Below, one piece after another: positions 6,210 through 29,685 of a stretch of 64,000 nt of DNA. Positions within the stretch are counted from its first letter, which is position 1. Every line of letters starts with the position of its first letter. Origin of the DNA: Deltaproteobacteria bacterium (GTDB lineage Bacteria; SAR324; NAC60-12); assembly GCA_038133845.1 (NCBI GenBank), contig JAYPUA010000004.1:16971-80970 (forward strand), read 5' to 3'. The position numbers and the translations under genes were made by a program. Below the pieces are notes generated by a model that was given only the letters and a program-made list of their open reading frames with translations, was not told the DNA's origin and ran no database searches.

Positions 6210-6968
6210 ATGAATTTGGAAGGAAAAGTCATTGTCATCACTGGAGCAGCCCAGGGGCTGGGTCGGCAATTTGCCTTGGACTGTGCCGCAGAAGGAGCGC
6301 GAGTGGCCCTGGTCGATCGAAGCCCGGAGCCTCTGGAGGCGACCCGGGCAGAGCTGGAGAACTCCGGAGCCGAGGTGAGAGCCTACACCGTGGATGTTTC
6401 CCAGGAAGAAGAGGTGGTCTCGCTGTACGAGCAGGTGGTGCAGGATTTTGGAGGACTGGATGCCAGCATCCAGAATGCAGGGATCCTCCGGGATAGCCTG
6501 CTGGTCAAGGAAAAAGACGGACAGATCCGCAAGTTCCCACTGGACAAGTGGCAGTCCGTAATCGACATCAACCTGACCGGAGTCTTTCTCTGCGGGAGGG
6601 AAGCAGCAGCCCAGATGATCCGACTGAAGCGCCCGGGGGTGCTGATCAACATCTCCAGCATCGCCCGGCACGGCAACTTTGGGCAGAGCAACTACTCGGC
6701 AGCAAAAGCCGGGGTGGCCGCAATGGCAGTGCTCTGGGCGAAGGAGCTGGCTCCATACGGCATCCGCGCCGCAGCGGTCGCTCCGGGCTTCACCGCGACG
6801 GAGATGGTCGTCTCCCTCAAGGAAGAGGTGAAGGCGATCTTCACCGAACAGGTCCCGCTGAAGCGCTTTGCAGAAACCCGGGAGATCTCGGACGGGGTGC
6901 TCTTCATCCTGAAGAACGACTACTTTACCGGAGAGATCATCGAGATCAGCGGCGGCGCCCGGATCTGA
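6210..6968 (+). CDS. SDR-family oxidoreductase (3-oxoacyl-ACP-reductase-like).
   Basis: N-terminal ITGAAQGLG Rossmann motif; NISS plus the YSAAK catalytic tetrad. Confidence 0.85.
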   Translation: MNLEGKVIVITGAAQGLGRQFALDCAAEGARVALVDRSPEPLEATRAELENSGAEVRAYTVDVSQEEEVVSLYEQVVQDFGGLDASIQNAGILRDSLLVKEKDGQIRKFPLDKWQSVIDINLTGVFLCGREAAAQMIRLKRPGVLINISSIARHGNFGQSNYSAAKAGVAAMAVLWAKELAPYGIRAAAVAPGFTATEMVVSLKEEVKAIFTEQVPLKRFAETREISDGVLFILKNDYFTGEIIEISGGARI

Positions 6969-6984
6969 TTTTTTGAAAAAGCTT

Positions 6985-7332
6985 ATGATGATTCAAAAAG
7001 CCATTGAGCACAAGCTGACAGAGGCCTTCGCTCCGGCCTTTCTGGAGGTGGAGAACGAGAGCCATCGTCACAGCGTCGCTCCGGGTTCAGAGTCGCACTT
7101 CAAGGTCACGGTGGTCTCCGGACAGTTTGAAGGCCTCAAACTGCGGGAGCGGCATCAGGCGGTTTACCAGGTGTTGGAGGAGGAGCTTTCCGGAGGAGTC
7201 CATGCGCTGTCCATCCGGGCTCAGACCCCCGAACAGTGGGAGGCCGCAGGAGGGAAAACGCACCAGACTCCGGACTGCCGGGGAGGCGATGGAGCGGCGA
7301 GGATGAGGGCGAATTCGGGGCGGCAAGCCTGA
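6985..7332 (+). CDS. BolA-family protein (IbaG/YrbA-like) with a C-terminal extension of about 25 aa.
   Basis: SHFKVTVVSGQFEGLKLRERHQAVYQVL...GVHALSIRAQTPEQW matches the BolA fold motifs. The ORF-track start at 6973 is TTG; the first ATG is at 6985. Confidence 0.7.
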   Translation: MMIQKAIEHKLTEAFAPAFLEVENESHRHSVAPGSESHFKVTVVSGQFEGLKLRERHQAVYQVLEEELSGGVHALSIRAQTPEQWEAAGGKTHQTPDCRGGDGAARMRANSGRQA

Positions 7333-11428: not shown

Positions 11429-14400
11429 CTACTCCAACTCCCCCTGGATCTGAACAACCGCCTCCTCCAGCGCATTCAGCGTCTCGGGGTTGGCGTCTTC
11501 CCAGAGTTGGCGCTCGTGGGCCTCCAGCAACCGCTGTGCAGCGTCTCGGAGAGCGAGGGGGTTGTGCTCCCGGAAGAAGTGCTGTTGCTCCGGGTCGAGC
11601 AGCAGCTTCTGGGCGACCTCCTCGTACTGGTAATCCGCAACAATGTCGCAGGTCGCATCGTATCCGAACAGGTAGTCCACCGTGGCCGCCATCTCGAAGG
11701 CGCCCTTGTAGCCGTGTTCACGCATCCCGGAGATCCACCTGGGGTTGAGGACGCGGCTGCGAAAAACCCGGTTGAACTCTTCCTTGAGTGTGCGGATCTT
11801 CACCCGATCCGGATTGGCTGAGTCTCCGTGGTAGGTCACCGGAGCCTGTCCCCGCAACTCAGAGACCGCCGCGTGCAGGCCTCCTTGAAACTGGAAGTAG
11901 TCGTCAGAGTCGAGCAGGTCGTGCTCCCGGTTGTCCTGATTCTGGTGCACGATCTCCACAGAGGAGAGCCGGTCTCGGAGCAGGGCGATCTCTTCGCTGC
12001 TGGAACCGTCTGCGCGGTAGGCGTGCCCGCCCCATTTGAGGAAGACCTCCGTCAGGTCTCCCCGCGACTCCCAGGTTCCGGCATCAATGAGCGGAAGCAG
12101 GCCGGTCCCATAGCATCCGGGTCCAGAGCTGAAGACTCGCAGCTCCGCGAGCTGTTCGGCGACCTCTGCGGCGTGACCGGATTGCTTGAGCTGCTGCTGG
12201 TCGCGAAGCCAGGCGGCACGGATCGGGTTCTGGTCTTCCGGCTCATCCAGGGCGGCCAGGCGCTTGGGGATGGTGGCAAGCAGGCGCATCGCCTCTCCAA
12301 AAGCGTCCCGGAACATCCCGGAGACCCGGAGCACCACATCGACCCTCGGGCGTCCAAGCTGTGAGAGCGGGACGATTTCAAAATCGACCACTCTCCCGGA
12401 AACCGGCTCCCAGACCGGCTCACACCCCCAAAGCCAGAGCGCCTGAGCGAGATCATCTCCTCCGGTGCGCATGTTGGATGTTCCCCAGATCACGAGGGCC
12501 AAGGTCCGGGGCCACTCCCCGTGGTCGCTCCGGTAGCGCTCCAGCAGCTCCTCTGCGAGCCGCTGCCCGCACCTCCACGCAGTCTGGGTGGGAATCACCC
12601 GCGGATCAACGGAGTAGAAATTCCGCCCGGTCGGCAGCACATCAACCCGGCCTCGTGTGGGCGCCCCGGAGGGTCCGGGAGCGAGAAACTTTCCGGAGAG
12701 GCCATCCAGCAGCCGCTGCGGTTCCAGGGCGCAGCGTTCCAGACGCGGCAAGAGGGTCTCGTGCAGCCAGCACCGCAGGGTGTGCAGGGCCTCCTTCCGG
12801 GCGACCGGGACATCGACAACGTCTTCAGGCAGCGCCTCCGGAGCCTCCGAGGCCACCCCGCACTCGTACGCCACCCAGCCTCGTGCCTGCTGCTCCACCT
12901 GCTCCCGCTCAGTGATCGAGAGGGTCTCCAGGTCGAAGCTCGAAGGCTGGCCGAGCAGCGCCTGCAGCAGCCCGGGACGCTCCACCGAAGACATCCGGAG
13001 CAGGCTCAGCAGAAAGTCTACTCGACGTGACTCTTGGGGGACCTCTCCAAAGATGTGCAATCCGGAGCGGATCTGGCTCTCCTTCAGCTCGCACAGGTAG
13101 TTGCTGAGCGCATTGAGCCAGTCGTCCTCCTCCGGAAGCTCTTCTCTCCACGGAGCCTCTTCGAGCAGGTGCTCGATCTGATGCTCAAGTTCATGAGCAC
13201 GTTCCGGATAGAGCGTTTCGCAGTGGGCGTGTTCTTCCAGCAACCGCTCGACACGATCCAGCTCATCGTACAACCCAGCCCGGGTGAGCGGCGGCGTGAG
13301 GTGATCGACGATCACTGCAGAGGTCCGACGCTTGGCCTGCGTGCCCTCTCCGGGATCGTTGACAATGAACGGGTACAGGTGCGGCACAGGCCCCAGCACA
13401 GCCTGCGGAAAATCCTCCGGCCCCAGCGCAACGCTTCGTCCGGGCAGCCACTCGAGGTTGCCGTGCTTTCCAAAGTGGATGAGGGCGTGAGCCTGAAAGT
13501 GTGTCCGGATCCAGTGGTAGAACGCGAGGTAGCGCGGGGGAGGGGAGAGTTCCGGGTCGTGGTAGATCGCCTGGGTCTGCAGGCCAAACCCGCGCTGAGG
13601 CTGAATCCCGATGAAGACGTTTCCAAAGCAAATCCCGGAGACCGGAATCGGTGCTTCGGCCAGATCAGAGAGGTCCCACTGCTCCTGCAGGCGCTCACGC
13701 ATGGCCTGAGGGAGTCGGGAGGTGAACTCTCTCAGCTCTGCCGCAGGAACCCACTGGGCGAGCGGTTTGCCGTAGCTCTGCTCTTCGTCATTCGTGATTC
13801 CAGCCTGCAGTTCACGGATTAGCTGATCACCATCTTCCGGAAGCACCCCGACCTCGTAGCCTGCCGCCTTCAGGTGCTGCAGAAACTTCACGACGCTTGC
13901 CGGAGTATCCAGCCCCACCCCGTTTCCCAAGCGGCTGTCATGGTTGGGGTAGTTGGCCATGATGAGAGCAATCCGCTTCTCCGAGTTGGCCAGCTTCCGC
14001 AGCTGCACCCAGTTTCGGGCCAACTCTGCCACGTGAGCGACCTGATCCGGATCCGGGACGACCGCCTTTGCCTGGAACTCCAGCTCCGGGTGAGTCTCCT
14101 GAGCCTCCTTGAACCCCACGACCGTGGTCAGCACGCGACCATCGGTTTCCGGAAGCGCAACCGACATGGCCACGTTGGAAGGGCTCAGGCCCCGCGGATT
14201 CTTCATCCAGGCCTCCCGGTTCTCTGTCGAGGCGATCACCTGCAGGACCGGGCAGCCCAAGGTTTCCAGAAAGGAGACCCGCTCATCCAAGCGACCGATG
14301 GAAAAGCTTTGAAGCGTAAGCACCACATCCGGAGGCTCCAGTTCTGCCCGACGCAACAGCTCCTCCTGCGCTGCAGGCTCGCGCAGAGAGTAGGCATAGA

Positions 14401-14785
14401 ACGCGGAGACCTCGAGCCCGTACGTGGTCAGGGCCTCGGCAAGCGCATCCACCACGGCAAGATCGCCTGTCTGATGCCAGGCTCGATAGAAGGTGATCCA
14501 GACGCGTTGAGGCGGTGAGAGCGTGGGAGGAAAGAGGTCCATGTGTTGAAGTGCTTTTGTGACCATTGTTGTTCTGAGCGTTTTCAGCGCCGCGCCTTGG
14601 CGTGAAGCCATCGAGGTGGGCGGCACTTTCGAGGTGTCGCACAAGGTTTGAATTGTACGGATGTCCGGGGCACCCTGCAACAGGGACGTCGCAAACAACC
14701 TTTCGCATGAATCCGCAGCGTCATGTAGGGCGTTGCGGTCTTTTTGCCTTGCCGGTCGAGTGGTTCTCTCGTATGTTCCGAACAA
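11429..14785 (-). CDS. CobN / Mg-chelatase large-subunit family protein. The N-terminal domain appears absent or degenerate.
   Basis: CobN motifs are present (VWITFYRAWHQTGDLAVVDALAEAL, FGKHGNLEWLPG). The first ~85 codons of the ORF look non-proteinaceous. The recognisable homology begins near MDLFPP, which corresponds to about residue 170-200 of canonical CobN. Confidence 0.65.
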   Translation of the reverse strand: MFGTYERTTRPARQKDRNALHDAADSCERLFATSLLQGAPDIRTIQTLCDTSKVPPTSMASRQGAALKTLRTTMVTKALQHMDLFPPTLSPPQRVWITFYRAWHQTGDLAVVDALAEALTTYGLEVSAFYAYSLREPAAQEELLRRAELEPPDVVLTLQSFSIGRLDERVSFLETLGCPVLQVIASTENREAWMKNPRGLSPSNVAMSVALPETDGRVLTTVVGFKEAQETHPELEFQAKAVVPDPDQVAHVAELARNWVQLRKLANSEKRIALIMANYPNHDSRLGNGVGLDTPASVVKFLQHLKAAGYEVGVLPEDGDQLIRELQAGITNDEEQSYGKPLAQWVPAAELREFTSRLPQAMRERLQEQWDLSDLAEAPIPVSGICFGNVFIGIQPQRGFGLQTQAIYHDPELSPPPRYLAFYHWIRTHFQAHALIHFGKHGNLEWLPGRSVALGPEDFPQAVLGPVPHLYPFIVNDPGEGTQAKRRTSAVIVDHLTPPLTRAGLYDELDRVERLLEEHAHCETLYPERAHELEHQIEHLLEEAPWREELPEEDDWLNALSNYLCELKESQIRSGLHIFGEVPQESRRVDFLLSLLRMSSVERPGLLQALLGQPSSFDLETLSITEREQVEQQARGWVAYECGVASEAPEALPEDVVDVPVARKEALHTLRCWLHETLLPRLERCALEPQRLLDGLSGKFLAPGPSGAPTRGRVDVLPTGRNFYSVDPRVIPTQTAWRCGQRLAEELLERYRSDHGEWPRTLALVIWGTSNMRTGGDDLAQALWLWGCEPVWEPVSGRVVDFEIVPLSQLGRPRVDVVLRVSGMFRDAFGEAMRLLATIPKRLAALDEPEDQNPIRAAWLRDQQQLKQSGHAAEVAEQLAELRVFSSGPGCYGTGLLPLIDAGTWESRGDLTEVFLKWGGHAYRADGSSSEEIALLRDRLSSVEIVHQNQDNREHDLLDSDDYFQFQGGLHAAVSELRGQAPVTYHGDSANPDRVKIRTLKEEFNRVFRSRVLNPRWISGMREHGYKGAFEMAATVDYLFGYDATCDIVADYQYEEVAQKLLLDPEQQHFFREHNPLALRDAAQRLLEAHERQLWEDANPETLNALEEAVVQIQGELE

Positions 14786-14950
14786 GCTGGGGCTCTGGAA
14801 TCACCCTGAACCCTGGCGCGTTTCCTGAGTCCCCAAAGAGCCCCCCCAATGCCATGGGGCAGCTGCCGATCGCAGAGTGCGAGAGTACCCCTTGGCAGGC
14901 TCCAAATTCAAGCACGGGAACAGGAGAAACTCCATTGTGAAAAAAGCTTC

Positions 14951-15526
14951 ATGGCATCGAAGAAGTTCGCGTCAGTATATCAGGTAAAGGCTACTCTAGA
15001 CTACATTCGGCCTCCAATTTGGAGGCGGTTTCAGGTGCCCAGCCACATCACTCTGTATGATCTGCACAGAGTTCTGCAAGTTGTGATGGGGTGGGAGGAT
15101 GCACACTTGCATCAATTCATAATTCAAGGGCAATTTTTTGGACTTCCTGAAGATGACATACTTGACGAGGAGATTATTGATGAACGCAAAGTGACGCTCA
15201 ATCAGATCCTGGTTCAGGAGAAGATGAAATTCAAATATGAGTACGACTTTGGGGACAGCTGGTCCCACACAATCCTGGTTGAAAAAATCCTGGAACCAGA
15301 GAAGGGTGTCCTCTACCCTGTGTGTCTGAAAGGAAAACGCAACTGTCCACCGGAAGACTGCGGTGGTGCTCCTGGATACGACTACTTGCTTGAGGTCTTG
15401 AAGAGGCCCGAAAGCAAGGAGTACAAGCAGTACAAGGAGTGGCTCGGCGAGCCTTTTGACTCGGAAGAGTTTGACCTCCAGGAGATCAACAAAGCTCTCA
15501 AAAAAATCCGCAAAAAAATCTCATAA
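14951..15526 (+). CDS. Plasmid pRiA4b ORF-3-like family protein (PF07929-like).
   Basis: IRPPIWRRFQVPSHITLYDLHRVLQVVMGWEDAHLHQF matches the family core. Local GC drops to about 48%. Confidence 0.6.
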   Translation: MASKKFASVYQVKATLDYIRPPIWRRFQVPSHITLYDLHRVLQVVMGWEDAHLHQFIIQGQFFGLPEDDILDEEIIDERKVTLNQILVQEKMKFKYEYDFGDSWSHTILVEKILEPEKGVLYPVCLKGKRNCPPEDCGGAPGYDYLLEVLKRPESKEYKQYKEWLGEPFDSEEFDLQEINKALKKIRKKIS

Positions 15527-15549
15527 TGCTCACATGGCCTCGAGCTCAA

Positions 15550-15774
15550 ATGAGTTTAATCCTCAAGAAAAAAATGATCTTGTTCAGCATTTTTGGGCTC
15601 CTGCTTGGTGGAGCGTTGGGGGCAATCGAGACGGTGTTTTATCAGTACGTCAATGACGAAGGGGTGCTGGTGGAGAGCTTCTTTATGCCGCTCAGCATCC
15701 TGAGCCTGTTTTTGGGCGGTGCAGGCTTGGTCGTTGCTGCAACCAGGTCCATGGCTGAAGCCATTCGCAGTTGA
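15550..15774 (+). CDS. Small two-TM membrane protein, hypothetical.
   Basis: Hydrophobic segments ILFSIFGLLLGGALGAI and LSILSLFLGGAGLVVAA. It lies inside the low-GC islet. Confidence 0.35.
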   Translation: MSLILKKKMILFSIFGLLLGGALGAIETVFYQYVNDEGVLVESFFMPLSILSLFLGGAGLVVAATRSMAEAIRS

Positions 15775-15780
15775 TGGCGG

Positions 15781-16179
15781 ATGCCGAAGCGAGCGATGAG
15801 CAGGATTCTGATACAGCTGTTGTTGGCTTCAGCACTCCTGTGTCCCTGGCCCACTCAGGCCGCACCACCGCAGGTGGGTGACCGAGTTGAAGGAGGCGTG
15901 TTCCTTTACAGGGAAGCCGTCGAGAGGTACTGGAACGACTGGGTCGGCTTTCCGCTGATGACGGACACGGCTTCGGCAACTCGTCAGGCTCGGTTGACGA
16001 TCGTGGGGGAGGGAAAAACAGCCCTGTTTATCGGAAATCTGAGCATCAACTGTGAGAGCGGGAAGTCTTTTTGGGAGAGCGCCGGAAGTCATTCGGAGTT
16101 CCTCTCAAGCGAAGAGGACGCCCGGAAGCTCGTCCCGGCTCCGGCTCTCCGCAATGCGGCACGGCTGTTCTGTGAGTGA
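15781..16179 (+). CDS. Secreted hypothetical protein.
   Basis: Signal peptide MSRILIQLLLASALLCPWPTQA. No recognisable domain. Confidence 0.4.
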   Translation: MPKRAMSRILIQLLLASALLCPWPTQAAPPQVGDRVEGGVFLYREAVERYWNDWVGFPLMTDTASATRQARLTIVGEGKTALFIGNLSINCESGKSFWESAGSHSEFLSSEEDARKLVPAPALRNAARLFCE

Positions 16180-17087: not shown

Positions 17088-17113
17088 CAGGCTGCCTCGT
17101 TCAGGTTTTCTTA

Positions 17114-17162
17114 AATTTATCATGATAAATTGTTGACACCGCAAAATTTATCATGATAAATT
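17114..17162. promoter_or_regulatory. Two copies of a perfect 18-bp palindrome AATTTATCATGATAAATT (17114-17131 and 17145-17162) bracketing a -35-like TTGACA (17133-17138).
   Basis: The repeats are read directly from the sequence. Spacing: -35 TTGACA, 17 bp, then ATAAAT at 17156-17161. They lie in the divergent promoter between the DUF1028 gene and the SBP gene. Confidence 0.5.
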
Positions 17163-23723: not shown

Positions 23724-24953
23724 ATGCTGAGAATCGACGGATCCCGCCTCTGGCGCAGTTTGATGGAACTGGCTCAAATCGGCGCAACTCCTGAAGGAGG
23801 GGTCGCCCGTGTTGCGCTCAGTGAGGAGGACCGTCAGGCGCGAGACCTCCTCCGGAAATGGGCCGAGCCGCTTGTGGATGAGGTTCATGTGGACGAGGTC
23901 GGGAACCTGTTCTTCCTCCGCCATGGGCTGGACCCGGAAGCCCCAATGGTTCTCACCGGCAGCCACCTGGATACCCAGATTCACGGAGGGCGCTTTGACG
24001 GCGCCTTTGGGGTCATGGCCGGCCTGGAGGTGCTCCAGACTCTGGCCGATGCAAAGCGCCGTCTCTCCTGTGGGGTGGGGCTGGTTTGCTGGACCAACGA
24101 GGAAGAGGCCCGCTACTGTCCCGCAATGGGGTCGGCGGTGTTTGTAGGCAAGCAGGATCCGGAGACCGCCTGGGCCTGCATCGGGACGGATGGCAGCGTC
24201 TTTGGAGAGCAGCTGGAACACATCGGATATCGTGGATCGCGGTGGCCGCTGAGGATTCACTCTTACTTGGAAGCCCACATCGAGCAAGGTCCGGTGCTTG
24301 AGCAGGAGGGGCTGGAGGTCGGGGTGGTCACCGGAGCACAGGGCCAGGTCGCCCTGGATGTTGAAATTCATGGTGAGGCCGGACACTCCGGAACCGTCCC
24401 CATGCCCCTGCGTCATGATGCAATGGCCTGTGCCACCGAGGCAACCCAGGCCTGCCGTCACCTGGTTCTGCAGGAGGGGCGGGGAGTCTTCACAGTCGGC
24501 TTCTTCACCATGGAGCCCAATTCCCGTACGACCATCCCCAACCAGGTCCGCCTGGGCATCGACCTGCGTCACCCGGATTCGTCCTCGCTCGACCAGCTCA
24601 AGGCAGAGCTGACTTGCACCCTTCAGGAGATCGCCCAGACCCACGGATGCCGGCTGGAAGTCCGTGTGCTGTTCCAGAAGGAGCCCGTGGTGTTTGACAC
24701 GCGCTGCATTCAGGCGGTTCAGATTGCAACGGATCAGCTCCAGTACTCCTCACGCACCATGGCCTCCGGAGCGTTCCACGACGCCTGCCTGGTCGCCACA
24801 ATTGCCCCCACCGGAATGATCTTTGTTCCCAGCCAGCACGGAATCAGTCATAATCCCACAGAATACTCTTCGCCTGAACAGTTGGAGCGCGGGGGCAACG
24901 TTCTGTTGCACGCGCTCCTGCAACTCGCCGAGAGCATTCCCAATACGTCATGA
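23724..24953 (+). CDS. M20 family amidohydrolase (allantoate amidohydrolase / N-carbamoyl-L-amino-acid hydrolase-like).
   Basis: GSHLDTQIHGGRFDG and WTNEEEARY motifs; about 410 aa. Confidence 0.75.
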   Translation: MLRIDGSRLWRSLMELAQIGATPEGGVARVALSEEDRQARDLLRKWAEPLVDEVHVDEVGNLFFLRHGLDPEAPMVLTGSHLDTQIHGGRFDGAFGVMAGLEVLQTLADAKRRLSCGVGLVCWTNEEEARYCPAMGSAVFVGKQDPETAWACIGTDGSVFGEQLEHIGYRGSRWPLRIHSYLEAHIEQGPVLEQEGLEVGVVTGAQGQVALDVEIHGEAGHSGTVPMPLRHDAMACATEATQACRHLVLQEGRGVFTVGFFTMEPNSRTTIPNQVRLGIDLRHPDSSSLDQLKAELTCTLQEIAQTHGCRLEVRVLFQKEPVVFDTRCIQAVQIATDQLQYSSRTMASGAFHDACLVATIAPTGMIFVPSQHGISHNPTEYSSPEQLERGGNVLLHALLQLAESIPNTS

Positions 24954-25690
24954 CTGAAGACCTCTCGAAGAACTCGCGCAAGCGCTCGGACCTGGTTGCC
25001 GAGCAAATCAAGGAAGACATCATCACCAAGCGGCTCCCTCCGGGAGAGCGGCTGTCTGATGAGAAGGACTTCCTGAAGACCTACCGAGTGAGCAAGGGGA
25101 CCATGCGGGAAGCCTTGAAGGCTCTGGAAGTGCAGGGGCTGGTCAATATTCGCACCGGGCCTGGAGGAGGAGCCTCGGTCTCTCGAGTGAGTGCCGAGAA
25201 GGCCAACGAGTTGCTCTGGAACTACTTCTTCTCCCGGAATGTCTCCATCGAGGACATCTACGCTGTCCGCAAACTGGTCGAACCGGAACTGGCGGCCAAC
25301 GTTGCGCAGCACCTTGACGAAGAAGACCTCGCGCTCCTGGAGCAGTCCGTCGGACACTGCTCGATCAAGGGTTTTGAGTCCAACGACCGGGCCCAGCGGA
25401 TTCAGGAACTCGACTTCCACCTCGTCCTTGCAGACGCCTGTCCGAACCCGGTCCTTTCCTTCTTTGCCAAGTTCATCCTCAGCCTGCTCGCCCGGATCAT
25501 CATCCATGAGGACATGACTCCGGATCCGCAGATCAGCGAGCGCCACAGCCAGCAAGGGCTGGACTACCATCAGGCCCTTCTCCAGGCATTCCGGGCCCGC
25601 GACCCGGAAAGTGCCCGGCAGGTCATGATCGAACACATGGAGGCTGCCGAGTCTTTCATGCTGCAAAATTACTACTCCCCTGCTCGCTGA
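24950..25690 (+). CDS. GntR-family transcriptional regulator, FadR/FCD subfamily.
   Basis: N-terminal wHTH (LPPGERLSDEKDFLKTYRVSKGTMREALKALEVQGLV) plus a C-terminal FCD domain. The start overlaps the M20 stop (ATGA). Confidence 0.85.
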   Translation: MTEDLSKNSRKRSDLVAEQIKEDIITKRLPPGERLSDEKDFLKTYRVSKGTMREALKALEVQGLVNIRTGPGGGASVSRVSAEKANELLWNYFFSRNVSIEDIYAVRKLVEPELAANVAQHLDEEDLALLEQSVGHCSIKGFESNDRAQRIQELDFHLVLADACPNPVLSFFAKFILSLLARIIIHEDMTPDPQISERHSQQGLDYHQALLQAFRARDPESARQVMIEHMEAAESFMLQNYYSPAR

Positions 25691-25769
25691 TTTTGGTTGT
25701 TCCCCTGAGGTCAGGCTGAAACCCCGATCTGGCGCTATTTTATTTAAAATTAGCAAAATCAGTATTTTA

Positions 25770-25861
25770 TTGATTTTGTCCCTAATTTTCCGTCAGGTTT
25801 TGATTTTTATAAAATACTGATATAATTATAAATTAATCACTGGACCTGAATTATTACAAGG
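25770..25861. promoter_or_regulatory. AT-rich promoter module A, paralogous to module B at 26460-26577.
   Basis: It shares the blocks TTGATT, AATTTYCCGTSAGTTTT, TTTGATTTTTA and ATTAWTCACT...TGAA...CAAAGG with the second module. It also contains the inverted repeat ATCAGTATTTTAT / ATAAAATACTGAT. Confidence 0.4.
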
Positions 25862-26043
25862 CGATGTTTGACGAAGCCCAGAGACTTTGGTCTGATTAAG
25901 CCGAGCTTGGAAACACCAAGGTGAGCCTTGCCCACCCGGTAGCAACATCAAAGACGAGGCCTTGATGTTTTCAGGTTCGTACAACTTCAAGTTTGATGCT
26001 CCGACCTCGGAGCCTGTCTGCAAACCTCATTTCGAGCGGAACT

Positions 26044-26283
26044 ATGAGATCTCACTTCAACCGCATTCCTCTTGAGCAAAAGATGAAGTACTACCCGGAG
26101 CAGGCCGCTCCGACCAGCGAGGACATCAACGCAGCCATGAGCGAATTCCTGGTCAGGGGAGGTACCATTCAGCGTATGAGCAACCACGAAGTTGCCAACG
26201 TATACCAGCGCAAGGCCTACAGCCGGAATGGGATGCTCCCATTGATGGACGACGACATGGACTTCTTCAACGACTTCACCTGA
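26044..26283 (+). CDS. Small hypothetical protein (~79 aa), Cys-free, with an acidic C-terminus.
   Basis: ATG at 26044 (MRSHFNRIPLEQKMKYYPEQ...DDDMDFFNDFT). It is flanked on both sides by AT-rich intergenic regions. No family recognised. Confidence 0.4.
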   Translation: MRSHFNRIPLEQKMKYYPEQAAPTSEDINAAMSEFLVRGGTIQRMSNHEVANVYQRKAYSRNGMLPLMDDDMDFFNDFT

Positions 26284-26459
26284 CCTCCCTGCCAAGCCCG
26301 GACTCCTGAGCTTCTCGGCCTCCAAACAGCCTGGGAGTCCTGCCCTTCTTCCCTTGAAGTCCCCCGCCCTCTGTTGATGAGCCAAACCGGGGCCTTCCCC
26401 CTTGTTTGTTTTTGACAAAGTAACCTCCCGCTACGAGACATTTTTCATAAAAATTATTT

Positions 26460-26577
26460 TTTGATTAAATTTCCCGTGAGTTTTCCCTCATCCTCCTTGT
26501 TCGATAAATTGGAAATTTTTTGATTTTTAGTAAATTTATTTGATTTAATCAAAATTATTCACTAAATTGAACAAAGG
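26460..26577. promoter_or_regulatory. AT-rich promoter module B, upstream of the rhodanese-YeeE operon. Paralogous to module A.
   Basis: Same conserved blocks as module A, plus the near-palindrome TTGATTTAATCAA. Confidence 0.4.
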
Positions 26578-26631
26578 TTCGCTCCGGTTGTTCCGGGGCA
26601 AGGTTTCCAACCCTCGTTGAGAGAGATTGTG

Positions 26632-27609
26632 ATGAAGTCGAAACTGTGGGGACTGCTCCCTTTCCTGCTGCTGTTCATGGCCACCGGAGCTCAGGCCGAG
26701 TTTTTCCAGCAGCCCCTCCTCTCGCCTCTGGAGTTGCACCGCCTCCAAGAGCAGCACCCGGAAGGCATTACGGTGGTGGACATCAGGCCACTGGAGCACA
26801 AGGTCCCCGAGGCGTCCTATACGGCAGGGCACATTCCGGAGTCCGTCTCTTCACCGTACGCAACCTGGCGCGGGCAGCCTGAAAATCCGGGGAAGATGGT
26901 GACTGTGGACAAACTCACCTGGCTGGTTCAGGCGTTGGGTGTGGAGCAGGATACTCCGGTGGTGGTGGTCCACCGGGGGGACTCTCCCAGCGATTTTGGT
27001 GCCGCAGCACGGGTGTACTGGTCGCTCAAGACCGCTGGACTGAGGGAGTTGGCGATTCTGGACGGAGGCTTTCAGGCGTGGCAGCAGGCCGGACTGCCGA
27101 TCTCCACGGAGGCACACACGGCGTTGCCCAGCGACTACGAAGTCCAGTTGAAGACAGCCTGGCTGGCTACCACTGCGGACATTGAGCAGTTGCTCAGTAG
27201 GTCCGAGGTTCAGTTGCTTGATGCGCGTCCGGAGGCTTTTTTTTGGGGAGAAAAATGGCATGGTGCTGCTGCACGTCCGGGAACGATCGCCGGAGCCGAG
27301 TTCTTTGACAACCACCGCTGGTTCCAACCGGAGAGCCCCTTGCTCGAACCCCCGGAGCGGCTGCGCAATTTGGTCCAGGAGCACCAGCTGGGACATTCAG
27401 AGGTGACGGTCTCCTTCTGCAACACAGGACACTGGGCGGCAACCAACTGGTTCGTACTCAGTGAGTTGCTCGGAGTGGAAGGGGTGAAGCTCTATCCGGA
27501 GTCGCTGGTCGAATGGTCCTCTGCCGGGCTCCCCATGGATCACGTCCCGGGAAGCCTGCGCTGGGCCTGGATTTCGACGCGGCAGTGGCTGAACGCTCAG
27601 TTCAACTGA
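26632..27609 (+). CDS. Periplasmic tandem-rhodanese sulfurtransferase.
   Basis: Signal peptide MKSKLWGLLPFLLLFMATGAQA, two rhodanese-like halves and an active-site Cys in CNTGHWAA. Confidence 0.8.
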   Translation: MKSKLWGLLPFLLLFMATGAQAEFFQQPLLSPLELHRLQEQHPEGITVVDIRPLEHKVPEASYTAGHIPESVSSPYATWRGQPENPGKMVTVDKLTWLVQALGVEQDTPVVVVHRGDSPSDFGAAARVYWSLKTAGLRELAILDGGFQAWQQAGLPISTEAHTALPSDYEVQLKTAWLATTADIEQLLSRSEVQLLDARPEAFFWGEKWHGAAARPGTIAGAEFFDNHRWFQPESPLLEPPERLRNLVQEHQLGHSEVTVSFCNTGHWAATNWFVLSELLGVEGVKLYPESLVEWSSAGLPMDHVPGSLRWAWISTRQWLNAQFN

Positions 27610-27611
27610 AG

Positions 27612-28757
27612 ATGACCTCCGTGAGCCTTTCCAGGTCCACCACGCTGCCTCGTGCCGGAAGTCCGGCGCGGAGGCGGGTGCTGCTTTCAGTCGGAGCGAT
27701 CCTGCTGGTGCTCACGCTGGCCATACACGCAGGGGTGAGACAGGGGCTGCTGCTCGCCATCGGCTTGGGGCTGGGAGCTACGCTGGAGGGCCTTCGCTTC
27801 GGGTTTGCCGGGCCGTGGCGCCAGGCGATCCTGAACCAGGATACCCGCGGGCTCAGGGCCCAGCTGCTCTCCATCGCCTTGGCCGCGGTGATGATGTTCC
27901 CCTTGCTGGGACAGGCTTCCGGGGAGTTGATCGGGGCTGCAGCTCCACTGGGGGTTGCAATGGTTCTGGGAGCGTTTGTCTTTGGGGCCGCGATGCAGGT
28001 GGTGCTTGGCTGTGGATCAGGGACGCTGGTCAACGCAGGTAGCGGCAACCTGACGGGGCTCTGGGTGCTCCCATTCTTTGTGGCAGGAAGCTTCCTCGGG
28101 ACCCTGCACCTGCCCGAGTGGAGCTTGTTAGGGAGCCTGCCTCCGGTGGTGATCAGTCATGAGTTGGGCACGGCGGGAGGCCTGATGGTCACTGCAGGTG
28201 GGCTGCTCGGGCTGGTGTTGGTGCTGCGACATCGCGCGGCTCCGGACGAGCAGAGGATCCCGCTACGGCTCTGGAAAGCCGCGGGGCTCCTGGCCGTTCT
28301 TGCCACGCTCAACCTCCTCGTCTCCGGGCAACCTTGGGGAGTCGTCTATGGCCTCGGGCTCTGGGGCGCGAAGCTGGCCCACTGGTCCGGAGTGGAGTTG
28401 AGCGGATTTGCCTTCTGGGATGCTCCCGGAAATGCCGGGCGGCTGGCGGAAAGCCTGCTGCTCGATGTGACCTCCGTAACCAACCTTGGCATCTTGCTCG
28501 GTGCCGGGCTGGCAAATTGCTGGAAGGGGGAGTTTGCGCCTCAGGTCACGCTGACCCCCAGGCTGTGGATTGCCGGCGCTGGAGCTGGGCTTTTGCTGGG
28601 ATATGCCTCTCGGTTGGCCTACGGCTGCAACGTGGGGGCATTTTTCAGCGGGATTGCCTCCGGAAGCCTCCACGGCTGGGTCTGGTTTGCTTCAGCTTTT
28701 GCAGGCTCCTGGGTTGGAGTGCGCCTGCGCAATCGTCTGGTAGGAGAAGTTCCGTGA
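27612..28757 (+). CDS. YeeE/YedE family inner membrane transporter (thiosulfate or selenium importer-like).
   Basis: The two duplicated signature Cys motifs VVLGCGSGTLVNAGSGN and RLAYGCNVGAFFSGIASGS. The start is 3 nt after the rhodanese stop. Confidence 0.8.
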   Translation: MTSVSLSRSTTLPRAGSPARRRVLLSVGAILLVLTLAIHAGVRQGLLLAIGLGLGATLEGLRFGFAGPWRQAILNQDTRGLRAQLLSIALAAVMMFPLLGQASGELIGAAAPLGVAMVLGAFVFGAAMQVVLGCGSGTLVNAGSGNLTGLWVLPFFVAGSFLGTLHLPEWSLLGSLPPVVISHELGTAGGLMVTAGGLLGLVLVLRHRAAPDEQRIPLRLWKAAGLLAVLATLNLLVSGQPWGVVYGLGLWGAKLAHWSGVELSGFAFWDAPGNAGRLAESLLLDVTSVTNLGILLGAGLANCWKGEFAPQVTLTPRLWIAGAGAGLLLGYASRLAYGCNVGAFFSGIASGSLHGWVWFASAFAGSWVGVRLRNRLVGEVP

Positions 28758-29118
28758 GCCCAACACGACAAATAACGATCCTGCTACTCTGGGGAATGTT
28801 GCTGGGGCTGCTTGTTCTGGATGCGCTACACAGCCTCCCCATCGACCGGTTCCAGTTGCCCCCGCCTCTGGCGTGGGGTTCCGGGAGTCTGGCCTCCGGA
28901 GGGTTTTGCGCAGTTTCTCCTCAGTAAGAGCCCCCGATTCCTTCTCCCCCAAACATCCATCAGGTCCTCAACCAAACCGCGAAACCATCTGCCCCTCAGC
29001 TTTCAGGTGGACCTATTCCAGATCCGGACTTGCAACCCTGAGGCTTAGCCATTATGTTCAGTTGTTGAACAATTTCTGCCAGAAGCAGGTTTTGGCAGAT
29101 TGCAAGTCTTGATTTTTG

Positions 29119-29685
29119 ATGAGACCAGAAGACCAGAGGGTGCTCAGTCTGCTTGAGGCCGTTGAGCAGAGCCCTTCCCTGAATCAGAGAGATCTGGCCC
29201 AGCATTTGGGTATCTCGTTGGGGATGACCAACGCGTACCTGCAGAAGGTCCTCAAGAAGGGCTTCCTGCGGGCCACGCAGGTTCAGCCACGCCGTTGGCT
29301 GTACTTCCTAACGCCTCAGGGGGCCTTGGAGAAGAGCCGGCTCAGCCTGAGTTACCTCCACCGGACCCTGGAGTCCTTCAAGGAACTCCGACGACGGACC
29401 GAGGAGATGCTGCTCCGCTTGGAGCAGCAAGGCGTCTCCGGGGTACACGTCTGTGGGGGTGAGGACCTGTCGGACATCGTGCAATTGTGTCTGGCCGGAA
29501 GTGAAATCCACCTGCTCTCTCAGATTCCCGAGGCGCAGCTGCGGGACTCCTCACAGGCCCTCCCTGAACTGCGCCACTCGGAGCGTCTCCTGCTTGCTGT
29601 GGTCGAGCCTGATCCTCAACTTTTGGAAGCCCTCCTTGCCCGAAACCTCAAGGAGTCCCGGGACTGGATTCGATTTCACTCCTGA
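29119..29685 (+). CDS. Winged-helix transcriptional regulator resembling EPS-associated MarR-family regulators (TIGR04176-like), with an extra C-terminal region.
   Basis: LGISLGMTNAYLQKVLKKGFL...RRWLYFLTPQGALEKSRLS matches the MarR_EPS pattern. The ORF-track start at 29116 is TTG; the ATG is at 29119. Confidence 0.5.
   Translation: MRPEDQRVLSLLEAVEQSPSLNQRDLAQHLGISLGMTNAYLQKVLKKGFLRATQVQPRRWLYFLTPQGALEKSRLSLSYLHRTLESFKELRRRTEEMLLRLEQQGVSGVHVCGGEDLSDIVQLCLAGSEIHLLSQIPEAQLRDSSQALPELRHSERLLLAVVEPDPQLLEALLARNLKESRDWIRFHS

Follow-up and report, generated by a model that had tools for sequence, protein, structure and literature searches.

Gene content of the locus

The stretch of DNA analyzed here (64,000 nucleotides, hereafter the window) carries two AT-rich islands, designated modules A and B, of which the first precedes a small open reading frame (ORF) and the second a sulfur-related operon (Table 1). 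The overall GC content of the window is 61.3%, below the value of 65% given for the genome in a first-pass annotation made from the sequence, and modules A and B are the longest and most AT-rich of its 10 islands.

Table 1. Genes and sequence features of the locus, numbered from the first letter of the window.
Feature	Position	Strand	Description
GntR/FCD (FadR-type) regulator	24950-25690	+	Pfam GntR and FCD; left border of the region
Module A	25710-25883	+	AT-rich island, 33% GC (100-nt minimum 25%), 5' of small ORF
Imperfect palindrome, 44 nt	25746-25789		Module A; AAAATTAG-CAAAATCA...TGATTTTG-...CTAATTTT; inverted-repeat search
Perfect inverted repeat, 13 nt	25758-25770 / 25809-25821		Module A; ATCAGTATTTTAT ... 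ATAAAATACTGAT; 38 nt between arms
Module A core	25798-25841	+	TTTTGATTTTTA, 15-nt spacer, extended -10 TGATATAAT, AAATTAATCACT (25830-25841)
Presumed 5' leader of small ORF	25884-26043	+	~50% GC
Small protein, 79 aa	26044-26283	+	SutA-like RNAP-binding motif AMSEFLVRGGTIQR; acidic, aromatic C-terminus DDDMDFFNDFT
Terminator-like hairpin, then T-run	26383-26414	+	Weak, intrinsic type; 3' of small ORF; terminator scan, -9.9 kcal/mol
Module B	26398-26598	+	AT-rich island, 32% GC (minimum 23%), 5' of rhodanese gene
Perfect inverted repeat, 12 nt	26459-26470 / 26543-26554		Module B; 72 nt between arms
Segment in B, absent from A	26485-26517	+	About 36 nt, between blocks 3 and 4; includes CTTGTTCGATAAATTGG
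Module B core	26518-26568	+	Two candidate promoters; AAATTATTCACT at 26552-26563
Dyad, 41 nt	26526-26566		20-nt arms, 80% complementary; overlaps both module B candidate promoters
5' UTR hairpin, 7 bp	26581-26599	+	GCUCCGG-UUGUU-CCGGGGC; folding
Periplasmic double-rhodanese sulfurtransferase	26632-27609	+	Pfam Rhodanese, homologs; signal peptide
YeeE/YedE-family sulfur transporter	27612-28757	+	Sulf_transp; start from metagenome gene calls
Conserved membrane peptide, 57 aa	28754-28927	+	Ends ...PPPLAWGSG..ASGGFCA; third operon gene
TTGATTTTTGATG	29109-29121	+	Fourth TTGATTTT of the window, abuts ATG of MarR-like gene
Winged-helix regulator, MarR_EPS-like	29119-29685	+	Below MarR_EPS family cutoff
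Shared block 1	A 25738 / B 26442		TTTTATTTAAAATTA / TTTTCATAAAAATTA
Shared block 2	A 25770 / B 26461		TTGATT
Shared block 3	A 25784 / B 26468		AATTTTCCGTCAGGTTTT / AATTTCCCGTGAGTTTT
Shared block 4	A 25798 / B 26518		TTTTGATTTTTA, exact 12-mer
Shared block 5	A 25818 / B 26541		TGATATAAT / TGATTTAAT
Shared block 6	A 25830 / B 26552		AAATTAATCACT / AAATTATTCACT
Shared block 7	A 25847 / B 26568		TGAA
Shared block 8	A 25856 / B 26572		ACAAGG / CAAAGG

The GntR gene is the last of an ABC-transporter/M42/M20 peptidase operon, overlapping the M20 gene (23724-24953) by 4 nt (ATGA). No link of its product to the modules was found, and no FadR/GntR-type operator (TNGT-N-ACNA) was seen by eye within them. 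On the other side, the MarR-like regulator had been put forward as a candidate binder of the modules; the related motif does lie at its start codon, but the proposal relies on a single TTGATTTT 8-mer at a position where one expects a ribosome-binding site and not a promoter, and a MarR-like gene is absent beside the orthologous operons. A Crp/Fnr-family gene is located ~3-4 kb beyond the window start. Regarding the transporter gene, NCBIfam TsuA models gave matches far below their cutoffs.

The small ORF, previously listed as unknown, could be placed in a small-protein family with a SutA-type RNA-polymerase-binding domain. It matched NF058628 (E = 9e-6) and PF20661 (E = 3.6e-4, 20.3 bits, below the gathering cutoff of 29.3), while its homologs P0122, P0123, and P0152 scored 24.6, 29.2, and 29.6 bits on the latter model, so the family straddles the PF20661 cutoff, which only P0152 reaches. 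Moreover, the top PDB match of the small-protein family profile was the SutA structure 7f0r_G (E = 0.025). The 79-aa ORF is a real gene of a rare small-protein family with a predicted SutA RNA-polymerase-binding domain.

An intervening leader of about 190-210 nt connects module A with this gene and contains an upstream ORF of 11 codons (25865-25900). BLAST of the segment 25845-26043 found nothing similar elsewhere, nor did this segment show signs of a pseudogene. Downstream of the small ORF, the intrinsic-terminator-like hairpin is weak, and consequently read-through into the operon is possible; its position between the two units was counted in favor of the reading, set out below, of A and B as sister promoters.

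Architecture of the two AT-rich islands

The first-pass annotation had described both regions as AT-rich, which is correct (32-33% GC); its limits for module A were too generous, since this island stops near 25883, being ~170 nt long, and the part that follows, of ~50% GC, has no counterpart in module B. Every sequence feature listed earlier is present, and the ordered blocks recur in the same order in both modules, together with a block that had been missed (shared block 1). The best local alignment of A with B scored 42 over 48 columns (~80% identity), against a null of 20.9 +/- 3.1 with flanks included (0/1000). Restricted to the AT-rich parts and compared with AT-matched shuffles, its significance is moderate (p = 0.004, or 0.02 with stricter gap costs), and the upstream part by itself gave p = 0.02-0.03. 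When long gaps were made cheap, a collinear chain reached 56.1 against 32.5 +/- 5.1, beyond the null maximum of 53.5 and all of 3000 shuffles. Aligned globally with MAFFT, the intergenic regions came out in poor register, which was uninformative, and the comparison was instead made by local and chained alignment; on that basis, the pairwise check proposed earlier shows a similarity exceeding composition.

When each module was compared on both strands with 14 other real AT-rich regions, scores were at most 26 for A and at most 38 for B, the latter from the reverse strand of its own ortholog in L088; A-B was the top-scoring pair among all regions compared. Low-complexity AT-rich DNA can reach fairly high scores even in non-homologous pairs, as this value of 38 illustrates. 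A possible third copy at 6955-7045 (start of BolA) scored 31 (z = 5) with flanks, fell to p = 0.06-0.08 when properly tested, is coding, and was discarded. The words TGATWTAAT and TTTTGATTTTTA occur within the window in modules A and B only, and were not found in 9 kb of additional sequence from this genome beyond it. In addition, the 8-mer TTGATTTT occurs four times in the 64 kb, always on the forward strand (25770, 25800, 26520, and 29109), against an expectation of 0.75 (2/100 shuffles reach 4), and TTGAT/ATCAA words number four in module B against 1.2 expected (p = 0.019). TTGAT/ATCAA is also enriched in L089 (p = 0.027) and L087 (p = 0.046), the enrichment of TGAT/TTGAT words being modest throughout (p = 0.02-0.05 per region).

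Both modules contain sigma-70-like elements, lying 60-230 nt upstream of the start codons within AT-rich islands of a GC-rich genome. The -35-like hexamer TTGATT (four of six positions of TTGACA) is found at 25800, 26520, and 26540. In module A it occupies 25800-25805, inside TTTTGATTTTTA, and is followed by the extended -10 TGATATAAT (25818-25826), whose hexamer matches at six of six positions and carries the TG; transcription would start near 25833. In module B, one candidate promoter pairs TTGATT (26520), across 18 nt, with TGATTTAAT (26541-26549; TTTAAT at 26544-26549), a -10 element matching 5/6 plus TG, and another pairs TTGATT (26540), across 17 nt, with TAAATT (26563-26568). The 15-nt spacer of A falls short of the sigma-70 range of 16-18 nt, those of B (18 or 17 nt) lie within it, and a strict sigma-70 scan of 25400-29300 returned 0 sites. 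The -10 candidates of module B are imperfect, TTTAAT lacking the A at position 2 and TAAATT matching four of six positions. Since each module lies directly 5' of a gene or operon and has such elements, "paralogous promoter modules", as they were called earlier, is a reasonable reading.

Dyad symmetry is present over these elements. The inverted repeat formerly noted within module A is real and unusual: its 13-nt arms are perfect (p = 0.004), and the right arm ends on the TG of the extended -10. Module B has its own perfect 12-nt repeat (p = 0.024), and its 41-nt dyad, a candidate operator, is centered on the perfect palindrome TTTGAT-TTA-ATCAAA (26539-26553). Population SNPs amount to 8 in 278 nt of the modules, which is about threefold the average over the locus (62 in 6240). 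The five in module B all fall within 26477-26494, and none were seen in its core (26517-26580). In module A, position 25800 is C in all six other strain contigs, changing TTGATT to CTGATT, which indicates that this hexamer is not strictly constrained.

Orthologous operons and interpretation of the islands

No close relative was found among GTDB species-representative genomes, the best rhodanese match being 31% identical, and the comparison was therefore based on loci from metagenome contigs. Rhodanese-YeeE operons with 65-67% protein identity and ~60% GC (L088, L089, and L090) are preceded by AT-rich islands in the corresponding position, carrying TTTGATATAATCAA, TTGATA-17-TATAAA, and TTCAYTAWAA units, and a CTTGTTCRATA block absent from A. 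Module B is collinear with the DNA preceding the operons of L088 and L089; a different hairpin stands in L088 at the position matching 26581-26599. In L174, a more distant ortholog (61% identity), the island is lacking. Unrelated and not AT-rich were the regions upstream of standalone rhodanese paralogs (first copy of L087, L091, L094, L107, and L175) and of L093, L173, and L174. Three orthologous promoters were informative.

These orthologs bear on the direction of the duplication. An insertion of ~30 bp in module B had been suggested, and about 36 extra nucleotides are indeed there; however, CTTGTTCGATAAATTGG (26496-26512) has aligned counterparts, CTTGTTCAATATAAT in L088 and CTTTTCTATAATCAATTGG in L087, so the segment is ancestral and missing from A rather than gained by B. 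As part of the explanation developed below, module B is probably the ancestral promoter of the rhodanese-YeeE-57aa operon, whose orthologs carry a related island, and module A consequently looks like a rearranged partial copy placed 5' of the small ORF; copying would have run from B to A. The loci L171, L172, and L176, which carry small-ORF homologs, showed no TTGAT/ATCAA enrichment upstream of these genes, and their AT-rich promoter abuts the start codon, as against 200 nt away for module A, both of which fit A as a copy of the operon promoter.

On balance, we rate it slightly better than even that the two islands represent sister promoter/operator regions of sigma-70 type, B ancestral and A a rearranged partial copy, served by a common regulator. 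The A-B similarity, the islands of the orthologous operons, the dyads of A and B, the SNP-free core of B, and the conserved SutA-like protein encoded by the small ORF argue for this. Points against it are the result of the strict scan, the 15-nt spacer of A and imperfect -10 elements of B, the C at 25800 in other strains, the moderate significance of the local alignment, the high scores that unrelated AT-rich DNA can reach, the small number of orthologous promoters, the lack of an island in L174, and the weak terminator. RNA polymerase would use the TTGATT -35-like hexamer together with the extended -10 (TGATATAAT in A, TGATTTAAT in B), with TTGATT-17-TAAATT as a second candidate promoter in module B, and module A would drive the SutA-like protein gene through its long leader. 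The long TTGAT/ATCAA-type dyads over the promoter elements may constitute the operator of a dimeric DNA-binding regulator, in which case a single signal, most plausibly sulfur or nutrient scavenging, would control both transcription units. The small ORF and the rhodanese-YeeE operon may plausibly be co-regulated.

The shared words could also represent the generic promoter grammar of the lineage (TTGAT-type -35, TATAAT-type -10, and AT-rich flanks) or chance, without duplication or a dedicated common regulator. Indeed, TTGATA, TGATATAAT, and TTCACTA also occur in other genomes, 5' of rhodanese orthologs and of a small-ORF homolog, AT-richness inflates scores (as in the comparisons of B with the L088 reverse strand and, with flanks, with 6955-7045), and the local alignment p of A with B is only 0.004-0.02. 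We regard this possibility as rather unlikely, because A resembles none of the window's eight other islands and B only one, weakly and without significance (p = 0.06), the chain of 7-8 collinear blocks lies outside all shuffles, and the GC-containing block AATTTYCCGTSAG, which is not a promoter-consensus word, is nevertheless shared in order.

Another explanation, which we judge unlikely, makes the islands mainly structural, as UP-element-like or curved DNA or as a platform for nucleoid-associated or Lrp-like proteins, their similarity being a by-product of past duplication with no specific shared regulation. It would suit the most extreme AT islands of the window, and their SNP density suggests weak constraint outside the B core. 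By eye, TAGTAAATTTATTTG (26528-26542) agrees at 13 of 15 positions with the E. coli Lrp consensus. In P. aeruginosa, an influence of Lrp on sutA has been described (bioRxiv 10.64898/2026.06.26.734693). However, the perfect 12-13-nt inverted repeats and the TTTGAT-TTA-ATCAAA palindrome exceed mere AT-richness, and the B core is free of SNPs. Far less credible, in our view very improbable, is that the modules are transcribed RNA elements (sRNA, riboswitch-like leader, or attenuator) or remnants of small mobile elements (MITE or attC-like). Inverted repeats around segments of 38 and 72 nt and the strong folding of module A would agree with it, but A folds equally well on its two strands (z = -2.9 and -3.0), which denotes dyad symmetry at the DNA level, and B folds weakly (z = -1.0 and -2.2). 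Neither the small-ORF leader (z = -1.2) nor the rhodanese leader (z = -1.3) has significant structure, and Rfam 15 gave no match in the window at gathering score and, at relaxed E-values, nothing above chance-level matches in 25600-26700. As for mobile elements, the inverted-repeat arms of A and B lie at non-homologous positions, no target-site duplication was found, and a search of ~73 kb of this genome and of the loci retrieved for comparison gave no further module copies.

Significance and comparison with known systems

If the two modules are indeed sister promoter/operator regions, they would show cleanly how, in nature, a promoter duplication has rewired regulation in an uncultured bacterium of high GC content, where AT-rich islands make regulatory DNA easily delimited, together with a hint on when a SutA-like factor is expressed outside Pseudomonas, namely with thiosulfate uptake. 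A bolder version, which we consider distinctly unlikely, is that a divergent SutA-type factor joined a thiosulfate-uptake regulon by promoter/operator copying, under a regulator recognizing dyads of the TTGAT-N3-ATCAA type; sulfur scavenging would then be accompanied by induction of a factor that tunes transcription globally, and the idea of a SutA "scavenging network" would extend far outside Gammaproteobacteria. A related promoter pair by itself is ordinary regulatory duplication, and the gene pairing is mildly interesting. The value of these data lies mainly in annotation, that is, a real, SutA-like small ORF, a conserved third operon gene, and candidate operator words for a regulon search.

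SutA is tied to nutrient limitation and scavenging, and reports of it come mostly from Pseudomonadales and Alteromonadales, whereas the host of the 79-aa protein belongs to an uncultured, SAR324-like lineage, with SAR324 and "Deltaproteobacteria" MAGs as its closest named relatives. SutA of Pseudomonas aeruginosa (PF20661; PDB 7f0r, 7xl3, and 7xl4) is also small (105-109 aa against 79 aa here), and the two proteins have in common disordered flanks, an acidic tail, and a central motif A-M-x-E-F-L-x-R-G-G-x-[IV]-Q. They differ in the placement of the acidic region, C-terminal in the 79-aa protein and N-terminal and D/E-rich in SutA, where it is required for function (PMC9300723); an N-terminal D/E-rich region was not found in the 79-aa protein, whose residues 1-25 include two acidic ones as read from the sequence.

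Regarding the promoters, both modules resemble extended -10 (TGnTATAAT) sigma-70 promoters overlapped by a palindromic operator in having dyad symmetry over the -35/-10 region; TGATATAAT of A matches the consensus exactly, while TGATTTAAT of B is one position off. The half-site words TTGAT/ATCAA are the same as those of FNR/CRP-family boxes (TTGAT-N4-ATCAA). However, the spacing is N3 in module B (at 26540) and in L089 (TTTGATATAATCAA), TTGAT-N4-ATCAA occurs zero times in the window, and an FNR/CRP box was accordingly rejected. The operon, in turn, may be compared with the thiosulfate uptake operon yeeE-yeeD (tsuA-tsuB) of E. coli. Here, unlike in E. coli, a periplasmic double-rhodanese precedes YeeE, and a 57-aa membrane peptide without Pfam match takes the place of the TusA-like YeeD as small partner. 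Common to both operons are a sulfur-assimilation context and a YeeE/Sulf_transp gene with a small, cysteine-bearing partner encoded downstream of it.

Arrangement and similarity of the two modules

Between a GntR/FCD and a MarR-like regulator gene, the window carries, in order, module A, a 79-aa ORF, a terminator-like hairpin, module B, and genes for a double-rhodanese, a YeeE transporter and a 57-aa peptide (see table). The first 4 nt of the GntR gene lie within the M20 peptidase gene before it; the GntR gene is thus the last of an ABC-transporter/M42/M20 operon. The source is an uncultured MAG; its rhodanese is closest, among named relatives, to proteins of SAR324 and "Deltaproteobacteria" MAGs (~61% identity), and no close relative was found among GTDB species representatives (best match 31% identical).

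Coordinates of features in the region between the two regulator genes
Feature	Position	Strand	Details
GntR/FCD regulator gene	24950-25690	+	left border
Module A, AT-rich island	25710-25883		33% GC
Module A, imperfect palindrome	25746-25789		44 nt
Module A, extended -10	25818-25826		TGATATAAT, 15 nt after TTGATT (25800)
Module A, second dyad	centre near 25820
79-aa ORF	26044-26283	+
Terminator-like hairpin and T-run	26383-26414		weak
Module B, AT-rich island	26398-26598		32% GC
Module B, dyad	26526-26566		41 nt, centred on perfect palindrome TTTGAT-TTA-ATCAAA
Module B, extended -10	26541-26549		TGATTTAAT, 18 nt after TTGATT (26520)
Module B, second candidate promoter	26540; 26563		TTGATT, 17 nt, TAAATT
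Double-rhodanese gene	26632-27609		signal peptide
YeeE/Sulf_transp transporter gene	27612-28757
57-aa membrane peptide gene	28754-28927	+	conserved; counterparts at L088 6126-6299, L087 7948-8121, L174 2878-3051
MarR-like gene	29119-29685	+	right border

Of ten AT-rich islands in the window (61.3% GC), modules A and B have the greatest length and the most extreme composition. The first-pass annotation, which described them as islands sharing ordered blocks, with an inverted repeat in A, was correct overall; its module A ran too far right, since the island stops near 25883 and 25884-26043 has about 50% GC. All listed blocks were found in both modules in identical order, together with a further 5'-end block, which reads TTTTATTTAAAATTA in A and TTTTCATAAAAATTA in B. 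The best local alignment (TTTTGATTTTTA...TGATWTAAT...AAATTAWTCACT, 48 columns) scored 42, against 20.9 +/- 3.1 for a null with GC-rich flanks (0 of 1000 shuffles reached 42); p was 0.004 for the AT-rich parts alone, 0.02 under stricter gap costs, and 0.02-0.03 for the upstream part only. Moreover, a chain alignment allowing long gaps scored 56.1 versus 32.5 +/- 5.1, with none of 3000 shuffles as high, so that the ordered similarity exceeds composition. In comparisons with fourteen other real AT-rich regions, no score of module A was >26, and the top score of module B outside A was with its own ortholog. Within the window, TGATWTAAT occurs only in the two modules, and TTGATTTT four times in 64 kb, always on the + strand (two in A, one in B, one abutting the MarR-like ATG). 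An apparent third copy at 6955-7045 was rejected (p = 0.06 on the proper test).

Promoter-like elements and symmetry

Both cores combine a TTGATT hexamer with an extended -10 element. A strict consensus scan called no promoters in this region, because A has a 15-nt spacer and the -10 hexamers of B are imperfect; given this, we infer, rather than demonstrate, from position and partial consensus that the modules are promoters. Long dyads overlie these elements in both modules. The 13-nt inverted repeat reported in A is real (p = 0.004), and B has its own perfect 12-nt repeat (p = 0.024). Furthermore, module A folds equally well on either strand (z about -3), which favours DNA-level symmetry, as of an operator, over a folded RNA. 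The TTGAT/ATCAA half-sites resemble FNR/CRP boxes; however, their spacing is N3, here and in the ortholog L089, instead of N4, and no N4-spaced box occurs anywhere in the window, ruling out a canonical FNR site.

Other sites were also observed. At 17095-17160, two copies of the 19-nt palindrome AAATTTATCATGATAAATT, 32 nt apart, flank a TTGACA hexamer; the arrangement looks like a textbook promoter carrying a paired operator, and its words are Fur/Zur-like. A palindrome at 1790-1815 (TTTTGTTATACTGTAACAAAAC), within an AT-rich intergenic island, is a possible operator. Outside the window, some 2.7-4.6 kb beyond its position 1, NnrS and SCO1/SenC genes neighbour a Crp/Fnr-family regulator gene (13831-15787 of the locus L181), a grouping suggestive of a module that responds to NO or oxygen.

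The operon in relatives and the proposed direction of copying

Source contigs were located for rhodanese homologs sharing 61-70% identity. The rhodanese-YeeE-57aa operon is conserved at the loci L088, L089, L090 and L174, and at the second rhodanese copy of L087; neither the small ORF nor a MarR-like or GntR gene lies beside it in any of these relatives. In the GC-rich L088, L089 and L090 an AT-rich island precedes the operon, holding TTTGATATAATCAA or GTTCAATATAATC, TTGATA-17-TATAAA and TTCAYTAWAA units, and aligning collinearly with module B. Moreover, CTTGTTCGATAAATTGG, inside what had been described as an insertion in B, is kept in L088 and L087. This segment is consequently ancestral, absent from A rather than gained by B, and module B would be the ancestral operon promoter. 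Upstream regions of the more distant L174 and of a standalone paralog group are unrelated to the modules.

For the small-ORF homologs at six loci (L171, L172, L176-L179), the start codon directly adjoins an AT-rich promoter region, which shows no enrichment of TTGAT/ATCAA words. In this genome, module A lies about 200 nt upstream and carries those words, which are enriched in rhodanese-operon promoters (B, p = 0.019; L089, p = 0.027; L087, p = 0.046); this difference modestly favours an origin of A as a copy of the operon promoter. The intervening 190-nt leader (50% GC) has no counterpart at the homolog loci, and contains an 11-codon upstream ORF (MFDEAQRLWSD, 25865-25900).

A comparison with six contigs of this species (99.4-99.7% identity) gave 62 variable sites in 6.2 kb, eight of them in the 278 nt of A and B. 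Three fall in A, where position 25800 is T in the window and C in all six contigs (CTGATT); the window allele of this putative -35 is thus the minority among seven sequences. The five in B all lie in 26477-26494, with none in its core (26517-26580). Constraint on the upstream blocks is therefore weak, while the B core may be constrained.

On balance, we lean slightly towards A and B being sister sigma-70-type promoter/operator regions, A as a partial copy of B. They would drive two separate transcription units, both probably answering to the same putative dimeric regulator. That generic promoter grammar or residual chance explains the shared words appears unlikely beside the alignment scores, and AT-rich structural or nucleoid-protein platforms lacking a specific operator are somewhat less probable again. 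RNA or mobile elements are very improbable, being disfavoured by the Rfam and folding results and by the lack of other copies in about 73 kb of this genome. The earlier interpretation holds in part: the idea of related promoter-like modules stands, while the insertion in B, the extent of A and the "unknown" status of the small ORF do not.

As for the regulator, the first-pass annotation put forward the MarR-like and GntR proteins as candidate binders; the one link between either candidate and the modules is a single TTGATTTT adjoining the MarR-like ATG. Upstream of the MarR-like gene (29040-29108), the dyads GTTCA-GTTGT-TGAAC and CTGCCA...TGGCAG are more plausible autoregulatory operators than that start-codon motif; the former resembles ATTCA-CTAAAT-TGAAC in module B (26556-26571), with different spacing.

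Predicted products and known systems

YeeE proteins are thiosulfate importers (PMC7449682, PMC11073785). The window YeeE also gave a weak, sub-threshold match to the selenium-related YedE/FdhT model NF033796, and a SelB elongation factor gene at ~59.8-61.7 kb (L180 4635-6500) makes selenocysteine use probable. The 57-aa ORF and the YeeE stop codon overlap (GTGA). Its product has a single transmembrane helix and, at the C-terminus, the motif PPPLAWGSG..ASGGFCA with one Cys; over this motif, identity to the L088 and L087 counterparts is 72-83%, and 57-aa ORFs lie at the equivalent place in L090 and L174. Pfam gave no match to this peptide, which could be a new type of YeeD/TsuB-like sulfur-relay partner.

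The 79-aa ORF is no orphan artefact but conserved. When 1.84 billion representatives were searched exhaustively, two distant homologs (46% and 41% identity) were retrieved, and a profile search added a fourth cluster to the family. All members share SFNRxPLxQ...P...I..A..EFL..GGTIQR and an acidic, aromatic C-terminus. They scored 20.3, 24.6, 29.2 and 29.6 bits against the SutA RNAP-binding domain (PF20661, cutoff 29.3); the 79-aa protein matched NF058628 (PFL_1563 small protein, E = 9e-6), and the top PDB match of the family profile was P. aeruginosa SutA (7f0r_G, E = 0.025). The family is rare (four clusters in the searched databases: the 79-aa protein, P0122, P0123 and P0152) and its members come from environmental contigs of 50-61% GC; at L171 and L176-L178 the gene follows a PDDEXK_1 nuclease-like gene.

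Canonical SutA, reported mainly from Pseudomonadales and Alteromonadales, requires an N-terminal D/E-rich region for function (PMC9300723). In contrast, the acidic cluster of the window protein is C-terminal, and for this reason we refer to it as a predicted small protein with a SutA-RBD, and not as SutA itself. Work on P. aeruginosa assigns SutA to a nutrient-scavenging network at stationary-phase entry (bioRxiv 10.64898/2026.06.26.734693), and we infer sulfur or nutrient scavenging as the physiological theme here. Duplicated promoter/operator regions are of a known kind; what stands out is that, in an uncultured lineage, a SutA-like factor is paired with a thiosulfate-uptake operon.
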